From Hormiphora californensis (taxonomy: Eukaryota; Animalia; Ctenophora): 64,000 bases of DNA. The stretch covers positions 868,001 to 932,000 of the forward strand of contig CM035355.1 in the NCBI GenBank assembly GCA_020137815.1. The letters run 5' to 3'. This document shows positions 38,869 to 52,630 of this stretch, one piece after another. The notes below the pieces were generated by a model. That model was not told the DNA's origin. It searched no databases and saw only the letters and a program-made list of their open reading frames with translations. The position numbers were made by a program, and so were the translations under genes. Numbering within the stretch: position 1 is the first letter of the stretch; each line of letters begins with the position of its first letter.

Positions 38869-39166
38869 GAATTTAGGGCAGGTCAATTTAGGGCAGGTCT
38901 GAATTTAGGGCACCTCAATTTAAGGTAGGTCTGAATTTAGGGTAACTCAATTTAGGGTAGGTCTGAATTTAGGGTAGGTCTGAATTTAGGGCAGGTCTGA
39001 ATTTAGGGTATGTCTGAATTTAGGGCAGGTCAATTTAGGGTAGGTCTGAATTTAGGGCAACTCAATTTAGGGTAGGTCTGAATTTAGGGCAACTCAATTT
39101 AGGGTAGGTCTGAATTTAGGGTAGGTCTGAATTTAGGGCAGGTCTGAATTTAGGGTATGTCTGAAT
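38869..39166. repeat. 15/17-bp minisatellite containing TTTAGGG (GAATTTAGGGTAGGTCT), ~18 copies
   Basis: Directly visible. Confidence 0.95.
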
Positions 39167-39170
39167 ACTA

Positions 39171-39826
39171 GGCATGTGAATGTGATTCGGGGAAGCTTAT
39201 AAGCGGTGTTAGACGATACGAGATATGGAACATGATTCGAGGAAGCAAATCAGGATTGTTTCTATCGCTTTCCATCCCTATATACGCTATTGGTTATAGG
39301 TAGGACTGTCTCATGTTGCTTTCTATGCGGGAGAAAGACATGGAGAAAGAGAGATACCCTTAACTTTTTACCGAGAGTCGAGACAGGAAGACTGTTGAGC
39401 TCCTCCGTGGAATTGAGGTTCGCCGCTTTCCCAGCAGGTAGATGAAAGCAGCTCCCGGTCGTTTCGTACAGGTTGATGGTCTTGGTAGAGAAACCGGATC
39501 AGAAGTAGGTGGCAGTGGTGGAGAACTTGTGGTCAGGAAGTCAAGAAGATATCCTCCATGCACTTCGCATAGCTAAACAGTGTCTTTTCACTCTCGGTAA
39601 AAAGAGCCGCCTACATCTTCAATTTCTACGTGCTTTCCCAGCAGAAAAAGTGAGAGAAATTGAAATAGACAGAGCGAACAGAGAGGTGGGTAGGGTCTAG
39701 GGATAGAAAGCGATAGAAACCTTCACCGAATCGTGTCTCATATCGTCTAACACTCCTGATTGGCTTCCCCGAATCTCGTATCGTCTCACACCGCTAATAA
39801 GCTTCCCCAAATCACATTCACATGCT
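39171..39826. mobile_element. MITE with ~54-bp TIRs plus subterminal repeats, possibly PIF/Harbinger (CTA/TTA flanks)
   Basis: GCATGTGAATGTGATTCGGGGAAGCTTATAAGCGGTGTTAGACGATACGAGAT matches the reverse complement of 39773-39825 with ~3 mismatches. Confidence 0.85.
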
Positions 39827-39838
39827 TTATGAACACTA

Positions 39839-39877
39839 TCAAACTTTTCAACACTACTTTAAACAAATTAATTTGAG
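39839..39877 (+). other. Spliced-leader (SL) exon-like sequence at the 5' end of the LINE
   Basis: TCAAACTTTTCAACACTACTTTAAACAAATTAATTTGAG matches my recollection of the Pleurobrachia-type ctenophore SL exon. It is followed by ACGCAGCCAA-ATG, not by a GT donor. Confidence 0.75.
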
Positions 39878-39887
39878 ACGCAGCCAA

Positions 39888-41030
39888 ATGACCGATGACC
39901 AGACCGTCAAAGATGTACTGGCGGAGCTGAAAAATGCTGTCGGAGCGAAGGGGAAGGTAGTGATTGAGGCCTACGACTACCATGCCGATCATACCGTTAA
40001 TGTGGACTCCATTGCAAGTAAGAAGGTGGAGGAACTGGGTCCGGTCTGTAAGGCTCTAAACGTGTTACTTGTCGGGCGGGATGGGAAAAGCCGAGAAATG
40101 ACGGAGTTGGCGGATAAGATCGTCCTACGTATTGAGGGGTTGTTTCCTATCGGCTGTCAAGATTGTGGGGAAAATTACAGGGTTAAACTTGGTACCACAC
40201 CCCCTTCATCTTGTTTTCTTTGCGGACAAGGGGCTCACTCATGCAAGCAGTCAATTAAGGGGAACCGTAAAGGCTCAGTGTGGGTTTGCTCGTATTGCTG
40301 GGAGAAAAATGAGCCTAACACCGACATCACGGTTGTTGAAACGCCAGAGATAAAGCCCGATGATGAGAAAAAGGACGAACCAGAGGATGATGGAAAAACT
40401 CTGGAATTGACCCCAGAGAACGTGTGTAAGCACTTTCTCAACCGGAAGTGCCGCTATGGACGAAATGGAACCAAGGAAGTAGAGGGGAGGTCATGTCCAA
40501 AACTCCACCCGAGACTCTGCAAGAGGTTTTGTAACTATGGGGCATCGAAACGCTTTGGATGCGTGAAAGGTGGTTCGTGTAAGTTCTACCACCCTCCCCT
40601 ATGCAAGGGATCTGAGGTGAGACGAGAGTGCTATGATAAAATATGCACACTGAATCACCTTCTACATACAAAACGGGATCGTATAGAAGGGCGAGGAGAA
40701 GATCGACCGGTCCAGGACAGGACCAGGAAAGCACACTCCCAGGCAGCTGGAGACCGGGCGGAAGATTTTAACTCAAAACGCCCAAAGCAAGCTCCAGGAA
40801 ACAGGAACAAGAACCCGGCTGAAAAGTTCTCTCAGCCAGACGAGAGGGTGACCCATGATTTTTTGGAGATGAAACTGGAAGTTCTGAAAGCCGAGATACA
40901 ACAGTCGGTGATGACCCAGTTTTTGGACTTAAAGTCGTTTCTGCAGCGGCAGTACGGAGCAGGGGAAAAACCCCACAATCCTTGGGGACTAGCAGGAACC
41001 CAGCCCCTGTATCAAACTTTCGCCTATTAA
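39888..41030 (+). CDS. LINE ORF1p (380 aa): PHD-like finger, three CCCH zinc fingers, C-terminal coiled coil
   Basis: CQDC...CFLC...HSC...WVCSYC; CKHF...C...CPKLHP; CKRF...C...CKFYHP; CKGS...C...CTLNH. Start taken as the first ATG after the SL-like sequence. Confidence 0.9.
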   Translation: MTDDQTVKDVLAELKNAVGAKGKVVIEAYDYHADHTVNVDSIASKKVEELGPVCKALNVLLVGRDGKSREMTELADKIVLRIEGLFPIGCQDCGENYRVKLGTTPPSSCFLCGQGAHSCKQSIKGNRKGSVWVCSYCWEKNEPNTDITVVETPEIKPDDEKKDEPEDDGKTLELTPENVCKHFLNRKCRYGRNGTKEVEGRSCPKLHPRLCKRFCNYGASKRFGCVKGGSCKFYHPPLCKGSEVRRECYDKICTLNHLLHTKRDRIEGRGEDRPVQDRTRKAHSQAAGDRAEDFNSKRPKQAPGNRNKNPAEKFSQPDERVTHDFLEMKLEVLKAEIQQSVMTQFLDLKSFLQRQYGAGEKPHNPWGLAGTQPLYQTFAY

Positions 41031-44000
41031 ATGCTAGGAGTTTCTGTCCATCAGCTGAAAGTACCTGGAAGTTAGAGGTAGTGCGTGATATGGTGGACGA
41101 GGACGCCACACCAGTGGCATTTTTGGGGATCACCGAGACCTGGTGGCGGTGTTATATGACTGAGGCCCAGGTACAAATTCCCGGGTACAACCTTGCTAGG
41201 TGTGACAGGCAGGGTAGAGTTGGAGGAGGTTGTGCACTGTATATCCACGACAGCATGGCGATATCAGACCAGATCGAATACTCCGATAGAGACAGTAACT
41301 TGACAGCAGTATACATCGGCAGCAAACATATGGTCGCTGCTGTGGTGTATCGAGTTGGTTCAAACGTGGAAGGATTTCAAAGGATGATGCATAGGCTGCA
41401 GGTATTTGTCGATTTTCACAGCCAGGAGAACACGGTTCCTGATATATGGCTGGCTGGCGACTTCAACCTTCCCCTCTTGAAATGGGAAGGCGGTGTTCTG
41501 GAATTTGTTGACCAGCCTCTATACAATACACTCCGGGATTTCATGGACACCAACCTTCTAACGCAGTTGGTATCATCACCAACCAGGGGTGATAATGTTC
41601 TTGATCTAGTGTTCACCAACAGGCCAGATTATGTCCTGGCGGTGAACTGCGACGACCTCGGAATATCCGACCATTCCATGGTGACATGCACTCTGGCATT
41701 TAACTGTACGGAAAGGGTGGAGAGAGACCTTGTTAGAGTCAGCACGCGCGGCTTCTAACTTTCATAGTTGCAAGAGGCCGCGCGCGCTAGCAGAGCGAGA
41801 TTTATTTATTCGAGTCGATTCAATGTGTCCGACGTTTTCATATATTTCAAGAGTTCCAAAACAACAAATCAAAGCATGTGTTAGCTGTCAACAAAATCAA
41901 AGTTATCACCAATCAAAGTTATCATAGATCCTAGTTAATCAGTTCTCTCCAATTAGCCAAGGTAGAACAAAATGGCGACGAAGATGGTAAGCAGCATAGA
42001 AGCTTGGGACGGGAAAGCTGACTCTTTACGAGGATGGTTAGACCGTTTAACGCAACTATTTATCCTGAATGAAGCTACTTCAGAGCGGAGGGTTGCGTCC
42101 CTGCTTGTCCACATTGGAAAAGGAGGCTATAAGCTTTTGCAGGACCTGACTTATCCCGAGGCCCCATCAAAGAAGTCCTTCGCCGAGCTATCAGCCCTGC
42201 TCGAAGAGGGAGTGATGCCAACTGAGTTGGTAATAGCAGAGCGATCAAAGTTTTTTGTAATTGTGCAAGGGAGGAACGAGGAGTTGCTCGAATTCTCAAA
42301 TCGGATAAAAAGGAGGGCGGCAACTTGTGCGTTCCCCAAGGAATTCCTCGATCAGATGTTGAGAGACAGGCTGGTATGCGGATTGTTCAACGAACGGATC
42401 AAAGCACTGCTACTAGCCGAGAATCCTAGCATTACCTTCAACCAGGCGTTGGAGAAGATAAGACTAAAACTGACAGCAGGGGACGAAGCTCGAAAACTGA
42501 CAGTCCAAGTGAAACCTCCTTCTATCAAGAGTGAAGTTTTCGTGGTGGACCAATCATGGAAAGACATCAGGTGTCAGAAGTGCACGCTAAGAGGACATAG
42601 TGAGCATCAATGCCACACCAAGTGCCACAATTGCGGTAAAACTGGGCACATATCCGTGGATTGTAGGAGCAGACAGAGTGGTTCCTCATCGAGCAAGTCC
42701 TCATCGAGCAAGTCCTACAACAAGTCCTACAACAAGAAACATAGCAAGAAGAGAAACGTCGGTGCAGTCTACGAATTTGATGAAGGTGAGAATCCTAATT
42801 CAAATTATCACAGTGATCACAGTGTTGGTAGTCTCAGTGTAGACAACCTCAGCGTTAATCAAAGTAATCATAGTGCTGAAAAGCAAATCAAAGTAACACC
42901 TCCTTTCTGTTTCAGAAACGGAACCCTTGTTGTAACCGCCAAGATAGAAGGGTGTGAGGTGGAATTTACGGTTGATACTGGAGCTGCAGTTTCTTTCGTG
43001 AATGAGGTAGTATATCATAGACTGTGTGAAAATGTACTGTGTACAGACACTAGTGTGAGATTGGCCGATGGGACCAAGTTATCAGTGAAAAGATTTGAAT
43101 CAGAGATCAGAGTTAACAACGTCACCCGATCCATTACGCTACATCATGCACCAGGCTTTTCTAATCTGTGGGGGAGGGATTTGCTATGTGAATTCAACCT
43201 ATGGGGAAACGTCCTGGGAGGTAGTGATCGAGTAGTGGGGGCGATATCGGAGAAATCGGAGTTTGAGCGAGAGGTACTCTCATCCCCAGCTTTTAGAGAT
43301 AGTCTAGGGCTGTACAAGGGGGGAGAGGCTAGAATACAGGTTAAGCTAGATTGCAAACCTGTGTTTTGTAAAGCGAGGACAGCTCCATTTTCTCTGAGAG
43401 AACCGTTGAAGAAAGCCCTAGATGAGCAGGTAAACCAAGGTGTAATGATCAAAGTGGAGACATCTGAGTGGGCTTCACCCATTGTTGTAGTAGCGAAGCC
43501 AGATGGAAGCGTGAGAATTTGTGGGGATTACTCTGGAACGGTGAATCCGGTGGTAGACACCAGTATTTATCCTTTGCCGACCACGGAAGAGTGTTTCGCA
43601 GCTGTGAGTGGAGGAGTTAAGTTCACCAAGATTGACTTGAAGGCTGCTTATTCCCAGATTTCCTTGAATCCAGTTGATCAAGAGTTGCTCACTTTAAATA
43701 CCCCATTTGGTTTGTACAGATGGACCAGGTTACCTTTTGGGCTATCGTCCTCCTCTGCTATCTTTCAGAGGATAATGGATGAAGTGTTAGAAGGTGTTGA
43801 GGGTACTATCTGTAGAGTAGATGACATTCTGATCACAGCGCCTGATGATAAGACTCACCAGATGAGAGTGAGAGACGTGTTAGATCGGTTAGAGAAGGCC
43901 GGATTGCGTGCAAAGCCGAGTAAAACTTCCATTATGGTGGATAGTGTGGAGTACCTGGGATATAAAATATCCAGAGAGGGAGTAAGTCCATTGAGAGATA

Positions 44001-47000
44001 AAGTAGAAACTCTTAGTAAGATGGAGTTCCCTGAAGATAGATCGAAGTTAGTCACGTGGTTAGGAGCTGTGAGTTACTACAGTAGATTCATTCGAGATCT
44101 AGCTACACTTGCTGAACCATTGAACGGATTACGAAGTAAAGAGACTCCCTGGGTAGTGAGAGATGAGCATAGAAGAGCATTTAAGTTAATCCAGAAACAG
44201 CTAATGTCTGATCAGGTATTAGTATTGTACAATCCTAAATTAGAATTGGTGCTGGATTGTGATGCATCTTGCTATGGTCTCGGAGCAGTGTTGTCCCAGA
44301 TAGAAGATGGAGTAGAACGCCCGGTCGAGTTCATTTCCAGGAAAATGACCACAGCAGAGCGTAACTATGCACAAATAGAGAGAGAGGCTCTTTCTATCGT
44401 GTGGGCGGTAAACAGGCTCCACCAATACTTGTATGCTCGTAACTTCACGTTAAGAACAGACCACAAACCGTTAGTAGTGCTGTTCGGACCGAAGAAAGAC
44501 GTGAAATTAACAGCACTGGGGAGGATCCAGAGATGGGGACTCATATTGGCCCAATACCGTTATAAGATTGAATTTCGAGGAACAGAGAAACATGCTAATG
44601 CGGATCTGTGTTCCCGGTTTCCTCTCGAGTACCAGGGAGAGTCTTGGACGGCGGGGTTACCCTCAGTTAGTGCAGTTAGTGAGGGGGAGCGTACTTTAGA
44701 TTTGAAGTGGGTTTCGACTGCCACACGAACAGATCCCGTGCTTAGTAAGGTAGTGAGATGGGTCCAGACAGGCTGGCCCATCCGAGAAGAGAGCAGTTTC
44801 AAAGATTTTAACTGTCGTAAGTTAGAGCTGACAGTGGAATCTGGATGTTTGATGTGGGGATCACGTGTAGTAATTCCAGAGAAGTTGAGATCTAAAGTGT
44901 TGAAGTTAATTCATGCTGTTCATATGGGACAGACAGCAATGAAGAGATTGGCCCGGGAGTACATCTGGTATCCAGGGTTAGATGGAGATATTGAGAAAGT
45001 GAGTGAGCAATGTGAGCAGTGTATTTTAACAAGAGATAAACCTGCACGAGCTACTCCTCATCCTTGGCATCCATCTAATCAACCCTGGGAGAGAATTCAC
45101 ATCGATTTTTGTCAATTTGAAGGCAGTGATTGGTTAGTTGTAGTAGACAGCTATACCAAATGGATAGAAGTATTCAAGATGGGAAGTACCACGTCGGAGA
45201 AAACAATTAGTGTGTTGAGAAGATTGTTTGCTACATTTGGTATTCCTGAGGTGATTGTGAGCGATAATGGATCACAGTTTACTTCACACGAGTTTGATCA
45301 GTTTACGGGCAGCAACCGTATTAAACATATTAGGTCCGCTCCTTATTCTCCAAAATCTAATGGGGCAGCTGAGGCAGCTGTGGGAACGTTTAAAGGTTGA
45401 CAAGATACCTAAAACTTTTCGTATATCGTCTTATTTTGATTTATCATTAATTTTCAGCATTTTTTCAGAATTTTTTGTCGGCTAGAAAAAAATTCGAAAT
45501 AGGGGGTCTACCGATATTGTCAGCACTGGTTTTACTGGGCACACTCACTGCGTCTCGCAAATTGAAATTCACGTTTCCGGTTCCTCAAAAGATAAAGACT
45601 TGATCTTGGTTGCGTTGGATTGGTCTCAATAAGACCTTTCCAACGCTACCAAAACGGTTTCTGTATCTCATCAGGAACCGGAGATATTACGTTATCAATT
45701 TTAAAAAAGGCACACTCATTTGTCAGTAGACCCCCTATTTTGCACATATTTCTAGCCGACAAAAAATTCTGAAAAAATGCTGAAAATTAATGATAAATCA
45801 AAATAAGACGATATACGAAAAGTTTTAGGTATCTTGTCAACCTTTAAAAGGGCCATGAAGAAGGCATCTGATATTCCAATAGATTTGCGAGTATCCCAGT
45901 TTCTAATGTATCAGCACACCACCCCTGCGATAGCTACTCAGGTTGCACCTGCTGTGTCCATGTTCGGTAGAAGAACCCGGACACGTTTGTCATTCCTAAA
46001 CCCTCTAGATCAGCCCGCAAAAGCAAGTATTCTTTCCAGGCGTGATCTAGATATTGGCACTTCTGTGAAAGCCGATGTTAGGGGTAAGTGGGTTGCAGGA
46101 GTTGTGAGAGAGAAAGTGGGACTGGTTATGTATAAAGTAGAAATTGATGGGAGAATATCAATAAAGCATATTGACCAGTTAATAGCAACTTCACCTAAAT
46201 CTGAGATCATAGGAGAGGAGGGGGATGATGAGTGGGATGAGTTACCGGTTATTTCAACTAGTCCAGTTAACCATTCGAAAACACTGAGAAAGTCGAAAAG
46301 AGAAACAAAGCCAATCGAGAGATATCAAGCGGGATGATTTTAAAATGTTAAATTGACAATTTAAGAGTGTTTAGTTTTTTTAAACAGTTTACCAGGAATT
46401 TTATATTGTATTAGTGTGTTCCACACTGTGTGTTGTTTTTGAATGTAACCTATTATTTGTGTGTGACAAGGGTGGCACATTTTAACAGAGTAGTAACGCG
46501 CGGCCAGCCCCAGTGCAAAGATTGTGCTAATTTGCGAATTTAGTTAGCAGCAAAAAATTAGTAAATAAACACCTAAAAGTAGCAAAAATTCGCTGTACAG
46601 CAAAAACTAGACATCGTGGAGTGAAATAGATACGTGCATCGTGTTCAGCGTCGAAAAATAGGTCGGGGTACGAAATTTGGTATCTCTACCTCATCTCAGT
46701 CGCGAAATTCGTATTTTGCTAATGCTGCCTAATCTAGCAGCAGCAGAAGAGGCAGCAGATGAAGTGTAGCTATGACAACCATGCTGCCATGCCGCGCGCA
46801 CATATAAGAACGGATTAAATTCGATCCTTGCATCAGCCTCAGTGGTCGAGTGGTTAAGGCGATTGACCATGAAACCAGAAGCGAGCACCTGTGTGGGTTC
46901 AAATCCCGATAAATCTTATTTTTTTAAAACATTTTCCTCGTTTATGCAAAATAATTTAAACATTTTTTCTCTAATGCTGACCTCAAAAACATAGTTGTTA

Positions 47001-49678
47001 AACACAATTAATGTTATTGAGGTGACCTTCAAAATTTGGTGGGAGCAAATTTTCGATAAAATTTTTAGATTCGCAGCATTTTTTAAGATCTTTGCACTGG
47101 GCGGCCAGCTCACAGGAGGTGAGAGGATGTTAGAGTCAGCACGCGCGGCTTCTAACTTTCATAGTTGCAAGAGGCCGCGCGCGCTAGCAGAGCGAGATTT
47201 ATTTATTCGAGTCGATTCAATGTGTCCGACGTTTTCATATATTTCAAGAGTTCCAAAACAACAAATCAAAGCATGTGTTAGCTGTCAACAAAATCAAAGT
47301 TATCACCAATCAAAGTTATCATAGATCCTAGTTAATCAGTTCTCTCCAATTAGCCAAGGTAGAACAGACCTACGGGAGAAAACAGGGTTTGCAGCGCTCA
47401 GCTTATTGGACATGGATTTTGAGAGGGCAAACGCGTTGTTTGAGGAGGTGGACTGGGACCTCCTGCACCTCCTCTGTTCTGAAGGTTGCAGTGATTTTTT
47501 GGAACTGATGAGGCTTACAGTTCTACAGATATCCACTATGTGTGCCCCACCTAAACGGGTTGGCAAGAAGTGGAGAGATAAGAAGTTGAGACACCTGCGG
47601 AGCCGGCGGAGGAAACTCAACCGGCGGATGGTCAGGGCATCTGGTAAGCTGAAACAGCGGCTGGAGGAAAAGGTTGACAGAATAACGATGGACATTAAAG
47701 ATCACGTGAAAGATCTACAGCAAGCTAGAGAAGAAAAAGTTGCAGCGGCGGTTAAGTTGAACCCTAAGTACTTCTTCACCCACGCCAAATCCTTCTCCAA
47801 GGTGAAGTCCTCGGTCTCTCCACTCGCGAGGGAAGATGGTTCTCTTACAACAGATTCTAGGGAAAAGGCAGACCTGCTGCAGCGGTTGGTGACGCGGTCA
47901 CCCCTCCACTAGGGCCGCGCGAAGCGCGGCAACGAAGCTCGCGAATAGGGGAATGTCATCACCAACTGCAGCGGCAATACGTGAAGGTCTTCAGTAACCC
48001 AGCGGATGTGGATCCAGAGAAGGCAATCGAGAACATTCCTGAGAACAATGTGGAAATCTTGGATATAGAGTTTTTCCAGGAGGATATTGAAAAGGCATTA
48101 AAGGAGCTTAAACCCAACTCAGCAGCCCCACCGGGAGATATTCCAGCTGTCATTCTAAAAAGCTGTTGCAGCAGATTAGCGTACCCGATTTGGCTTCTCT
48201 GGAAGGAGTCTTTCAATACAAGTACCATACCAGCAGCAATGAAAGAACAGTTTATCTGTCCAATCTTTAAGAAAGGGGATCGCTCGCTGCCTGAGAATTA
48301 CCGACCGGTGGCTATCACGTCACATATCTCCAAAACATTTGAGAGGGTGCTGCGAGACCACCTGACGAACTTCTTGGAGAGAGCAGAGCTTCATTGCGAT
48401 AGGCAGCACGGCTTTCGAAAGGGGCGAAGTACGATGACTCATCTCCTCGCCCATATAGATAGAGTATTAAAACAACTCACTGAAGGGAATGAAGTGGACG
48501 TTTTGTATCTGGACTTTCAAAAGGCGTTTGATAGAGTTGATACACGTGTCTTACTCAAAAAGCTTCATCGTTATGGTGTCCGCGGCAAACTGTTGGCTTG
48601 GATAAAGGAGTTCCTCATCAACCGGAAGCAGACGGTACTTGTGGACGGGGAGCAATCATTTTGGGAACTCGTGGTCAGTAGTGTAATCCAGGGCAGCGTA
48701 CTGGGGCCAGTCCTTTTCATATTTTATGTACTCGACCTGAAAGAATGCCTCTCAAGTGCAGACTCGATGTCTTTTGCCGATGACACTAAGCTGATCCAGG
48801 CTATCCAGACCCTTCTTGACCAAGTGGAACTTCAAGAGGACATCAAAAATGTTAGTCAGTGGTCGTCCAATAACAACATGAGGCTTCACGAGAAGAAGTT
48901 TCAGCTAATGATATACCCCCTAGGCAAGTCCCAGTTGCTTAGGGAGCTACCTTTCACGTCTGAAACCCTGAGCTATGTTACGGAAGCAGGTACGACTGTG
49001 GAACCTGAACAGCACGTAAAGGACCTCGGTGTATGGTTGTCGGCGGATGGTACATGGACTTATCACATCAATGACATCGTTAGGAGGGCCAACCGGATTG
49101 CGGGATGGATTCTGAGCGTGTTCAGATGTAGATCTCAGGAGGTATTACTGACTCTATACAAGGCCTTGGTTCGTCCCATTCTAGAGTACTGCTGCTTGGT
49201 TTGGTCACCGTCCAAGGTAGCTGACATCCAGGCGCTGGAGAACGTTCAGCGAGCTTTCTTAAGAAAGATCTATGGGATGAATGAGCTGACCTACTGGGAG
49301 CGGTTGGAGACTCTGAAAATCATGTCCCTTCAGAGGCGACGCCAGAGGTACGAGCTTATACATGTCTGGAAAATCTATCATGGACTAGTACCTAACTGTG
49401 TAGGAATGGAATTCCAGACAGGCCGCTTGGGGATACAAGTCAAAACGCAGAAGTATCCTTATTGGGCTGATAGGAGGCGAGCTACCCAGCTGTTCAACTC
49501 GTTCAGTTACAGGGCTCCTCAGTTGTGGAATAAACTGCCCCGAGAGGTGACCCTTTGTGAAACATTGGCAGGGTTTAAGGCTAGCCTGGGCTCTTTCATG
49601 AAGGAGTACAAGGACAGGCCTCCAGTGAGAGGGTACCCCACGGTCCCGAATGACTTCAGTCAGGCGGCGAAATCTTAG
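40982..49678 (+). CDS. LINE ORF2p (AP endonuclease + reverse transcriptase), split: 40982-41730, 47372-47885, 47975-49678 (989 codons rejoined)
   Basis: APE motifs LLNARS, ITETW, GGGCALY, GDFN, LDLVF, SDH. RT motifs YRPVA, QHGF, LDFQKAFD, QGSVLGP, FADD, KDLGV, RPILEY..VWSP. Junctions read ERDL|REKTG and DLLQR|QYVKVF. Confidence 0.95.
41972..46337 (+). CDS. Gypsy gag-pol single ORF (1303 aa when 41972-45393 and 45848-46337 are joined): Gag with 2 CCHC knuckles, protease, RT, RNase H, integrase
   Basis: CQKC..RGH....C and CHNC..TGH....C; VDTGA; WASP, LPFG, RVDD; DAS, ERE, TDHKPL; HAVH..CEQC, HIDF, SDNG, SNGAAE. Junction reads GTFK|RAMKK. Confidence 0.97.
41973..41987 (+). promoter_or_regulatory. 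Primer-binding site, tRNA-Ser(GCU)-type
   Basis: TGGCGACGAAGATGG is 14/15 complementary to the 3' end (...CCATCCTCGTCGCCA) of animal tRNA-Ser(GCU) as I recall it. Confidence 0.8.
45394..45843. mobile_element. 450-bp Kolobok-type MITE (AGG...CCT termini, TTAA TSD) inserted in the Gypsy integrase
   Basis: ~120-bp TIRs; TTAA at 45390-45393 and 45844-45847; removal restores the integrase frame. Confidence 0.93.
46509..47101. mobile_element. 593-bp non-autonomous TIR element (CCCAGTGCAAAGAT ends, 8-bp TSD CGGCCAGC; hAT-like TSD length) in the Gypsy 3' UTR
   Basis: Perfect 14-bp TIRs; CGGCCAGC at 46501-46508 and 47102-47109. Confidence 0.9.
46836..46925 (+). pseudogene. tRNA-Ser-derived sequence with A box, B box and T7 terminator; lacks the 3' acceptor strand
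   Basis: GTGGTCGAGTGGTTAAGGCGATTGAC ... GTGGGTTCAAATCCC, then TTTTTTT at 46919-46925; nothing complements the 5' acceptor strand. Confidence 0.8.
47886..47965. mobile_element. 80-bp micro-MITE (TTGGTGA...TCACCAA), 9-bp TSD CTGCAGCGG, Mutator-like
   Basis: TSD at 47877-47885 and 47966-47974; removal restores LINE ORF2. Confidence 0.93.
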
Positions 49679-50485
49679 CTGTGTCTGATTTTGCTGTGTG
49701 TGATTTTGCTGTGTGTGATTTTGCTGATGACTGACCACCAGTCAGACGGGGCGATTCGATTTTGATATTTTGAGTTAAGACTTGACAAGGAGGACCCACT
49801 CGCTGGGAAATCCGCACGCGTTTAGATTGTGTAAATTTAATTTGATTTGATTTGATTTGATTTTATCTTTGGATCGAGGGAACGACTTCGCTGGGATTAT
49901 GGGCTATGGTCAAAAAAGGTAACGGCCTCTCCGGGCCTGTGGACCCCGAGCTGGCTGCCGCTGCTGCACCGGCGCCACTCTCAAGACATTCCGGTGCTCA
50001 GAACCGGTCCCCTAGAAATAATTTGCATCGTGGCCTCTGCCAGTGTGAGATAATGCAGGCTTCAGCCTTAGGCACTTTTCTTGGCATACGTTGCAGGCCC
50101 CTTATAATATAATATAAGGGGCCTGGAGGGAATACCGCGCTGGGGGGGAATACATAATCAATCATATCTCCGGTTCCAGATAAGGTACAGAAATCGTTTT
50201 GGTAGCGTTGGAAAGAGGAAGATAACAGCTTTCAAATGCAACCGGTTTCAGGTCTCTATTTTATTAGGAACAGGAGATATGAACCAAACTCCGCAAAATC
50301 GAGTGCGGTAAAATAAAAAAATTCGAGATTTTAATTCAAATTTGAAACCAAGTGTCCCTGCAGGAATCTGTGACGTCACTTTTTGAAAACAACCCATCTT
50401 TGAACGGTTATTGCTCAGCCTCCTGAAGTCCAATTAACTCCTCTCAAAACAGCAAGGTAGATAATTGTCAGATCTAAGAGCTAGT

Positions 50486-51667: not shown

Positions 51668-52630
51668 TTAGTAACCCATTTTAATGATCCCGTTTTGAAT
51701 GTAATATTTCCCATTTGGATCTTCCAGTCTAAGCCTCTTTACGGTTTCTACTAGTTGTTTTCGTTCCTTTTGTTGAACAGGAGTTAGATCCGGTGAGAAA
51801 AATACAGATGAAAAGTTTTCCGACTGTTTCAAGAGTTTTGCTTTCCTAAGAAGTGCTAACAGAGATTCTCTGCTCTCCAGAGAGATAACCAGTGGTCTCG
51901 TTTTGGAACTTGAATCCAGTTTTTGGCCGACTCGTTTCATCGATTTAGTAACAGGTTTCTCATTTAACTCTTCGAATAGTTCTTTCACTGAGATTGAATC
52001 AACTCGGGTCGTAGACTCAGGTAAACCAAACACCACGAGGTTTTTAGCTCTATCAGGCTCCACCACTGCATTGCTAGACGCTGAGATCCGAGGGGTTGCT
52101 GCATTTTTCACTACCTTAGGGGTGATCACAGAGCAGTTTTGACTCAAAACGGTAGAATATGCTTTCATTTTAGCAACAGAACTGGACGCAGACTCGAGAT
52201 GGCGGTCTTGTAGAGCGATAATCTTCTTCTGCAGGTCAATTACAGAGATCCGATGCTTATCAAGTTCCTCCTTGCATTTCTGCATGCGCAGTTCAGCTTC
52301 TTTCACTTTACACTCCATGACATGATGAGAATTCATATACCGATTTGCAACACGTATACTGCTAACAATAGTCCTGCTACTCAGATTAATAACCTCCTCA
52401 ATGCTACAGTTTTTGAACGCATTCCTTAACATTCTATCATGATTGTCGATTTGGGCGTCACTGAACCTCTTGATTTTAGCATGATCAATGTCCCAATCTT
52501 GAGGGTTGGGATTAGCTTCCATTTCTTTCCGGCAGGCAGGGTTGAAGATCATTGAAAGATGAAGAGCCCATGGTGCGATTGAGTCATCATTTATCATAGG
52601 GCTATCACCCTTCTCCTCTGTCGTTGTCAT
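51668..52630 (-). CDS. LINE ORF1p-like protein (320 aa): coiled coil + RRM/CTD of L1/CR1/L2 ORF1 type
   Basis: Intact, intronless ORF with DRAKNLVVFGLPE, RVGQK...RPLVISL, LLRKAKLLK, VFFSPDLT...ERK.L motifs typical of ORF1p. Confidence 0.9.
   Translation of the reverse strand: MTTTEEKGDSPMINDDSIAPWALHLSMIFNPACRKEMEANPNPQDWDIDHAKIKRFSDAQIDNHDRMLRNAFKNCSIEEVINLSSRTIVSSIRVANRYMNSHHVMECKVKEAELRMQKCKEELDKHRISVIDLQKKIIALQDRHLESASSSVAKMKAYSTVLSQNCSVITPKVVKNAATPRISASSNAVVEPDRAKNLVVFGLPESTTRVDSISVKELFEELNEKPVTKSMKRVGQKLDSSSKTRPLVISLESRESLLALLRKAKLLKQSENFSSVFFSPDLTPVQQKERKQLVETVKRLRLEDPNGKYYIQNGIIKMGY

Follow-up and report, generated by a model that had tools for sequence, protein, structure and literature searches.

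The window, a stretch of 64,000 nucleotides from the ctenophore Hormiphora californensis (GCA_020137815.1, contig CM035355.1, positions 868,001 to 932,000), contains a LINE whose 5' end is formed by the last 39 nt of the host spliced-leader (SL) exon (39839..39877, + strand), as identified from the published leader and from an SL RNA gene. Without a nested Gypsy element the LINE spans 4384 bp and comprises the leader, a 10-nt 5' UTR, ORF1, ORF2, a 3' UTR and an ATTTG tail. The UTR (39878..39887, +) holds a CAG at 39881-39883 and is followed by the ORF1 start codon at 39888. This succession of 39-mer, 10 nt and ATG had been described in an earlier model reading of the letters (hereafter the sequence-only reading), and its coordinates proved accurate. 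The same ATG is the start common to the relatives P0001 and P0002. ORF1 (39888..41030, +) is intact and encodes 380 amino acids with a PHD-like Cys/His cluster of H-x-C spacing and three CCCH-type motifs. A PHD pattern with textbook spacing did not match ORF1, and Pfam searches of ORF1 relatives returned only sub-threshold matches to zf-CCCH_2 and FYVE_2, in 5 of 13 cases.

ORF2 is split into two parts. The APE endonuclease part (41090..41730, +; Pfam PF14529 and PF03372) is 71% identical to the intact relative P0029. The remainder, including the reverse transcriptase (RT; 47373..49678, +; PF00078), was located by tblastn with P0029, to which ORF2 is colinear, and the same alignment placed a frame change between 47882 and 47966. 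A Gypsy-type LTR retrotransposon with identical 239-bp LTRs (41731..47366, +) interrupts the reading frame and is bordered by a 5-bp target-site duplication (TSD; 41726-41730 and 47367-47371). The Gypsy element is young, and its long ORF stops at 45400, within the integrase region. Because the Gypsy insertion splits ORF2 and ORF2 additionally carries the frame change, the window copy of the LINE cannot move and, judged from its sequence, is dead. Its 3' end is a tail of ATTTG repeats (49835..49863, +) detected by TRF. The TATC pair put forward as a weak TSD of the LINE is indeed present at 39837..39840 (+) and 49864..49867; being only 4 nt long and overlapping the first two SL-matching bases with its left copy, it stays a weak and unproven candidate.

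The left neighbour of the LINE is an unrelated MITE-like element with terminal inverted repeats (39172..39825, without strand assignment). Self-BLAST aligned 39172-39260 with 39825-39749, and contigs from DNA runs, in which the MITE reaches high depth, match it up to 39825-39827, which places the previously claimed MITE end at 39826 correctly to within one base. A tandem array with a unit of 16-17 nt (38869-39166) adjoins the MITE. One contig from the DNA run X5 matches 39770-39837 and then diverges; it might represent an empty allele. Pfam searches of 94 of the 96 listed stop-to-stop ORFs outside the LINE gave no family at the curated cut-off, so that no host gene or read-through source was identified in the window, and none of the SL-led mRNA loci described below mapped to host genes in the window. 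On the minus strand, positions 51671-52630 hold an intact ORF of 320 amino acids that is 47% identical to the SL-led metagenome locus L009. A YAG lies 2 nt before its ATG. No ORF2 follows, and some 150 nt further down there is a short tail that looks like a repeat. No leader was found upstream of this ORF, which may be truncated; it possibly represents an ORF1-only retroposon or a domesticated gene.

Relatives of ORF1 were obtained from ENA assemblies and Pleurobrachia bachei. Matches of the RT included ctenophore proteins (Bolinopsis, Mnemiopsis) at 51-55% and, more distantly, proteins of birds at 36-38%. CR1 being the main LINE of birds, these matches are an indirect sign that the window LINE fits the CR1 group. 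It is built as an APE-type LINE, with APE preceding RT in ORF2, a separate Cys/His ORF1, a 3' tandem-repeat tail and no LTRs of its own, those in the locus belonging to the nested Gypsy element. With the CR1 group (Jockey superfamily) it shares the two ORFs, APE plus RT, the short tandem-repeat tail and the PHD-like ORF1 cluster, PHD ORF1s having been described in CR1 and L2 in the accessible text of PMC4120745. Unlike elements of that group, however, it begins with a host SL exon and a 10-nt UTR instead of an element-specific UTR.

The 39-mer is an exact match to the last 39 nt of the 44-nt leader published for H. californensis, which according to the available text of that study is carried by 56% of Iso-Seq reads and has 718 occurrences in the genome (PMC8527503). 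Within the 64-kb window, a search that allowed up to 3 mismatches found a 36-nt portion of the leader just once, and it turned up in 0 of 100 shuffles. We scanned metagenome contigs with the last 25 nt of the leader as an exact word, a scan that favours repeats. It yielded 107 stretches in 106 loci, mostly SL-led mRNAs and one SL RNA gene array; SL pattern scans of viral and genome contig sets gave 0 matches. In 97 of the 106 loci the leader lay no more than 12 nt from the contig end, and most of the leader loci at contig ends continued into unrelated, uninterrupted long ORFs. Leader words were also present in an oligo-dT RNA run. The main ATG followed within 10 nt of the leader in 37 of 91 SL-led mRNA-type loci (median 15 nt); measured against these contigs, the 10-nt UTR of the LINE is ordinary for a trans-spliced mRNA. 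The SL RNA gene array (L068:1-1945) consists of tandem genes with a 778-bp period and a GT donor, and is identical to the window at 39 of 39 leader nucleotides. Published leader, SL RNA gene and mRNA contig 5' ends all agree with the claim of the sequence-only reading that the 39-mer is the host SL exon that heads mRNAs, and at the level of nucleotide identity we consider the matter settled. The L068 gene has a C where the published leader consensus starts with G; this initial G may be a cap-derived extra base, in which case the exon would measure 43 nt.

Apart from the 39 exon bases, the L068 array had no further match in the window. The features of an SL RNA gene, a GT donor with intron and an upstream promoter, are present in L068 and absent in the window: no GT follows the 39-mer, the 3' flank is not the SL intron, and no SL promoter lies upstream of the leader. 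NeSL, SLACS, CRE and CZAR are RLE elements that insert into SL gene arrays, and a LINE beside an SL exon could likewise arise by such an insertion, or from a switch of template to SL RNA. The beginning of the LINE tail (49828-49845) moreover resembles the AT-rich 3' end of the leader (39865-39877) over about 13 nt, probably by chance. However, the comb jelly LINEs have dispersed flanks unrelated to one another and an endonuclease of the APE type, not RLE, and their junction always falls at the exact exon end without any intron bases. We therefore regard insertion into SL genes or template switching as very improbable, in line with the earlier claim that the locus is not an SL RNA gene and did not arise by NeSL-style insertion into one. 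For the window and seven other flanked loci, SL-gene insertion is contradicted.

More than 12 nt preceded the leader in nine of the 106 metagenome loci. Six of these were LINE or LINE-homologous loci (L020, L029, L063, L066, L098 and L105); the rest were the SL gene array and two unassigned loci (L054 and L101), and none of the nine was a recognised host retrogene. With two further SL-headed LINEs that have short flanks (L032 and L049), the total comes to eight LINE or LINE-homologous loci, a classification made from ORF1 homology and APE domains. Pfam APE domains reached the cut-off in L029, L032, L049 and L063 and stayed below it in L020. L063 is a distant relative of the window LINE (ORF1 31%, endonuclease 41%). 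The other seven (L020, L029, L032, L049, L066, L098 and L105) form a second group with a CCHC-type ORF1, which gave no BLAST match to the window ORF1, and with UTRs of 145-215 nt. The ORFs of L054 and L009 matched no Pfam family at cut-off and were left out of the LINE count, and scans of metagenome, viral and genome contigs with the ORF1 alignment returned no relative. Eight flanks of at least 30 nt had no BLAST match to each other or to the SL gene promoter; wherever they were long enough to compare, the upstream flanks of SL-headed loci were thus unrelated. An exact-word scan of this kind indicates that SL-headed LINEs are common, and is blind to copies of the same families that lack the leader.

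In L063, 351 nt of flank precede the leader and the contig starts with a donor-like GTAAG, while its source assembly otherwise holds SL-led mRNA-type contigs; the flank is possibly read-through RNA, perhaps intronic, or DNA carry-over. Within the first 60 nt after the leader, L009, L054, L096 and L101, and more weakly L063, share a uORF of 1-4 codons, a 4-bp GC hairpin after its stop and then the main ATG. A loose form of this pattern, which was drawn from these same loci, occurs in 5 of 12 TE-like loci and in 3 of 94 others. It is possibly a shared translation control element.

To follow the SL-ORF1 junction in public data, contigs from 4 of 22 listed runs (X2, X5, X11 and X18) were placed on 39770-40500. 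For X2 (organism A), the stretch 39895-40219 is covered by one contig alone, 407 bp long, whose start at 39850 falls inside the leader. For X11 (organism B), 39895-40319 is likewise covered by one contig alone, of 1863 bp, with its end at 39851; organism B is about 95% like the window, with 31 differing letters and 60 gap positions across some 650 bases. The contigs of both species read at the junction keep 6 nt between the leader and the end of the CAG. A contig start inside the leader is expected from a 31-letter assembly graph, as the leader is common to many other places, and a close copy with different upstream sequence would break the contig at the junction or add depth. The junction contigs had depths of 139.7 (X2) and 39.1 (X11), compared with 26.3 and 5.4-10.5, respectively, for the smallest variant contigs; as depth is not copy number, this excess hints only roughly at a merger of several copies. 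At four positions the window departs from every X2 and X5 contig, and these contigs thus mostly represent other copies or alleles. Contigs drop rare variants, and the sample behind X2 may be the one from which the window itself was sequenced. X5, where depth was highest, is neutral either way, since its junction contigs lay outside those listed. In the RNA run X18, with only leader and MITE bins covered, no contig of this LINE family was seen, and the run is uninformative on LINE expression.

More generally, each DNA run has 18-28 contigs that pass from the leader at 39877 into sequence of diverse kinds (agreement 0.40-0.46, consensus not GT); in X2 and X5, 20-21 contigs run into the leader at 39839 out of diverse flanks. 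The SL thus stands at the head of many different sequences in the genome. The sequence-only reading had named as one refutation a family in which most copies carry a longer 5' end without the leader; no such form appeared in the X2 and X11 contigs, which drop rare forms. Boroni et al. raised chimeric assembly for SL-containing Schistosoma elements, in the part of their report available to us, and the window junction could in the same way be a chimera, or else a one-off retrocopy. Such an accident is hardly credible here. Both versions are largely refuted, since contigs under two organism labels show the same junction and other assemblies contain many families with SL heads. As far as the contigs can be read, SL heads appear to be family-wide in the window LINE and common to several pleurobrachiid LINE families.

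Of the about 43-44 nt of the leader, the eight LINE loci keep 28, 35, 40, 41, 41, 42, 42 and 43. Outside the 25 nt used as search word, 112 of 112 leader bases in these loci match the SL gene up to the break. Identity is 39-94% in the neighbouring UTRs and 31-59% among the group's five full ORF1s; in four subfamilies, L020, L032, L098 and L105, the leader is joined at the same UTR base. A second SL relic downstream of the leader was found in none of the 106 loci. Junctions at the precise end of the exon, leaders that are almost complete and flanks unrelated to one another point to trans-splicing of the LINE RNA followed by reverse transcription to the cap, as the sequence-only reading had claimed and as we, too, find most likely. 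Undecayed, full-length leaders on deeply diverged families further argue for addition of a fresh leader in each lineage and against passive copying. We infer with high confidence that the leader was added by trans-splicing, that target-primed reverse transcription followed, and that this was repeated in each lineage. These LINEs thus seem habitually to have their RNA SL trans-spliced before it is reverse-transcribed.

The leader could also have been captured once per lineage and copied passively ever since, if the element or the leader itself drove transcription from the leader's first base and selection kept the leader intact. An internal promoter of this kind dispenses with splicing at a GAG, Song et al. 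proposed SL relics as promoters of dinoflagellate retrogenes in the accessible text of their paper (PMC5585692), and the 145-215-nt UTRs of the CCHC-type group could hold one. Under passive copying, however, the leader should have drifted and shortened, whereas it is full-length to within 0-3 nt in six of the eight LINE loci and shows 0 substitutions in 112 unselected bases despite the deep divergence of the families. The UTR of the window's own family, moreover, is just 10 nt long. We judge capture with an internal promoter to be rather improbable.

Given repeated leader addition, the source of the template has to be considered. In the proposed cycle, the family's RNA would acquire its leader by trans-splicing, as host mRNAs do, before reverse transcription copies it nearly up to the cap. 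The resulting SL-headed copies would serve as the next templates: in a transcript that starts upstream of the copy, the old leader would act as outron end and acceptor, and re-splicing would take place at or next to its terminal AG. Since a master without the leader was seen in neither of the two species, SL-headed copies as templates make the simplest cycle. With guarded confidence we favour a version in which there is no hidden master with its own outron, and a transcript from upstream exchanges the old leader for a fresh one. The promoterless form put forward in the sequence-only reading, with read-through from host promoters and splicing at the integrated leader's own AG, is our best guess, about as likely as not. 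Taken as a whole, the window holds a dead CR1-like copy with a host SL 5' end, from a family whose RNA is likely trans-spliced and whose SL-headed copies are probably, if by no means certainly, re-spliced as templates.

Alternatively, a few hidden masters may keep their own promoter, outron and YAG acceptor, with the SL-headed copies as their dead-end offspring. Ordinary acceptor rules would then be satisfied (PMC12707134, as far as its text is accessible), the window copy is dead in any case, and the exact-word SL scan is blind to masters. The entries P0027 and P0028, which are probably one locus and were read from protein only, bear on both sides: they show leader-like residues, about 30 extra bases, a probable YAG and then the same UTR. 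The YAG just before the common UTR fits a master, but the leader-like residues upstream of it do not; either an ancestor was re-spliced downstream to give the window's form, or the extra bases are an insertion. Against hidden masters further stand the lack of a non-SL form in X2 or X11 and the need for a long-lived master in each of many families; besides, a master could not copy itself if every one of its RNAs shed the outron. We consider hidden masters unlikely.

The acceptor is the weak step of the leader-renewal cycle. The terminal triplet of the leader is GAG, and in the window LINE a CAG follows 6 nt downstream. In the available text of PMC12707134, the wild-type yeast spliceosome passes over GAG in favour of a neighbouring UAG, a preference that it loses when Prp8 is mutated. 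In Schistosoma, the acceptors of outrons are laxer than those used in cis (PMC5832876, accessible portion), and in our contigs a YAG lies within 6 nt after the leader in 23 of 93 mRNA-type loci, compared with a background of 9.6%. This enrichment suggests tandem acceptors at ctenophore trans-splice sites; neither it nor the leniency in Schistosoma addresses a ctenophore GAG. Counting against leader renewal, GAG is non-consensus, yet the 6 nt before the CAG end are kept in both species. The leaderless ORF at 51671-52630 (-), despite its likeness to the SL-led L009, and the longer 5' form in P0027/P0028 weigh in the same direction. In its widest form, several unrelated pleurobrachiid LINE families would have dispensed with a promoter and 5' processing of their own, relying on read-through transcription from wherever a copy inserts and on a leader swapped at its own AG, and many of the 718 leader loci would be LINE heads rather than SL genes; this we offer as a tentative and somewhat doubtful extension.

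Parts of this picture have precedents. About 30% of the TE Iso-Seq reads of Hydra carry an SL (PMC12220107), and in S. mansoni six transposon genes contain the SL, for which either trans-spliced, retro-transcribed elements or assembly chimeras were suggested. The accessible texts on the SL-bearing TEs of Hydra and Schistosoma describe no genomic LINE families that start with the leader and propose no renewal in each cycle. In dinoflagellate retrogenes, trans-spliced RNA is written back with an SL relic whose AG is a possible new acceptor (PMC5585692). As far as the text at hand goes, these relics sit on passenger host genes and are decaying or stacked, whereas in the comb jelly an autonomous element is headed by a single, undecayed leader. 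A chaetognath paper contained nothing on SL-headed elements in its accessible text (PMC12460157). Our literature search, which took in few subscription papers and main texts without supplements, found neither genomic leader-headed ctenophore LINE families nor a leader-renewing cycle. Within the texts available, trans-spliced transposon RNA is thus already known from Hydra, Schistosoma offers hints of SL-bearing retrotransposons, and no genomic description at the level of whole families came to light.

In each cycle a LINE has to restore its 5' end in full, for which two answers are known, an internal promoter and a self-cleaving ribozyme. If the proposed cycle is true, host trans-splicing would be a third answer. 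The leader would then be a simple tag for full-length LINE copies, and the reading of hundreds of genomic leader copies in comb jellies would change. The idea is directly testable, as the host animal has a chromosome-scale genome and Iso-Seq data. Functional counterparts are the 5' ribozymes of R2 and L1Tc, which play the same role in both elements. That of L1Tc cuts a defined 5' end from a read-through transcript, according to the accessible text of PMC3383444. In the comb jelly LINE, by contrast, the 5' end would be set by the host spliceosome and not by an RNA that the element itself encodes.
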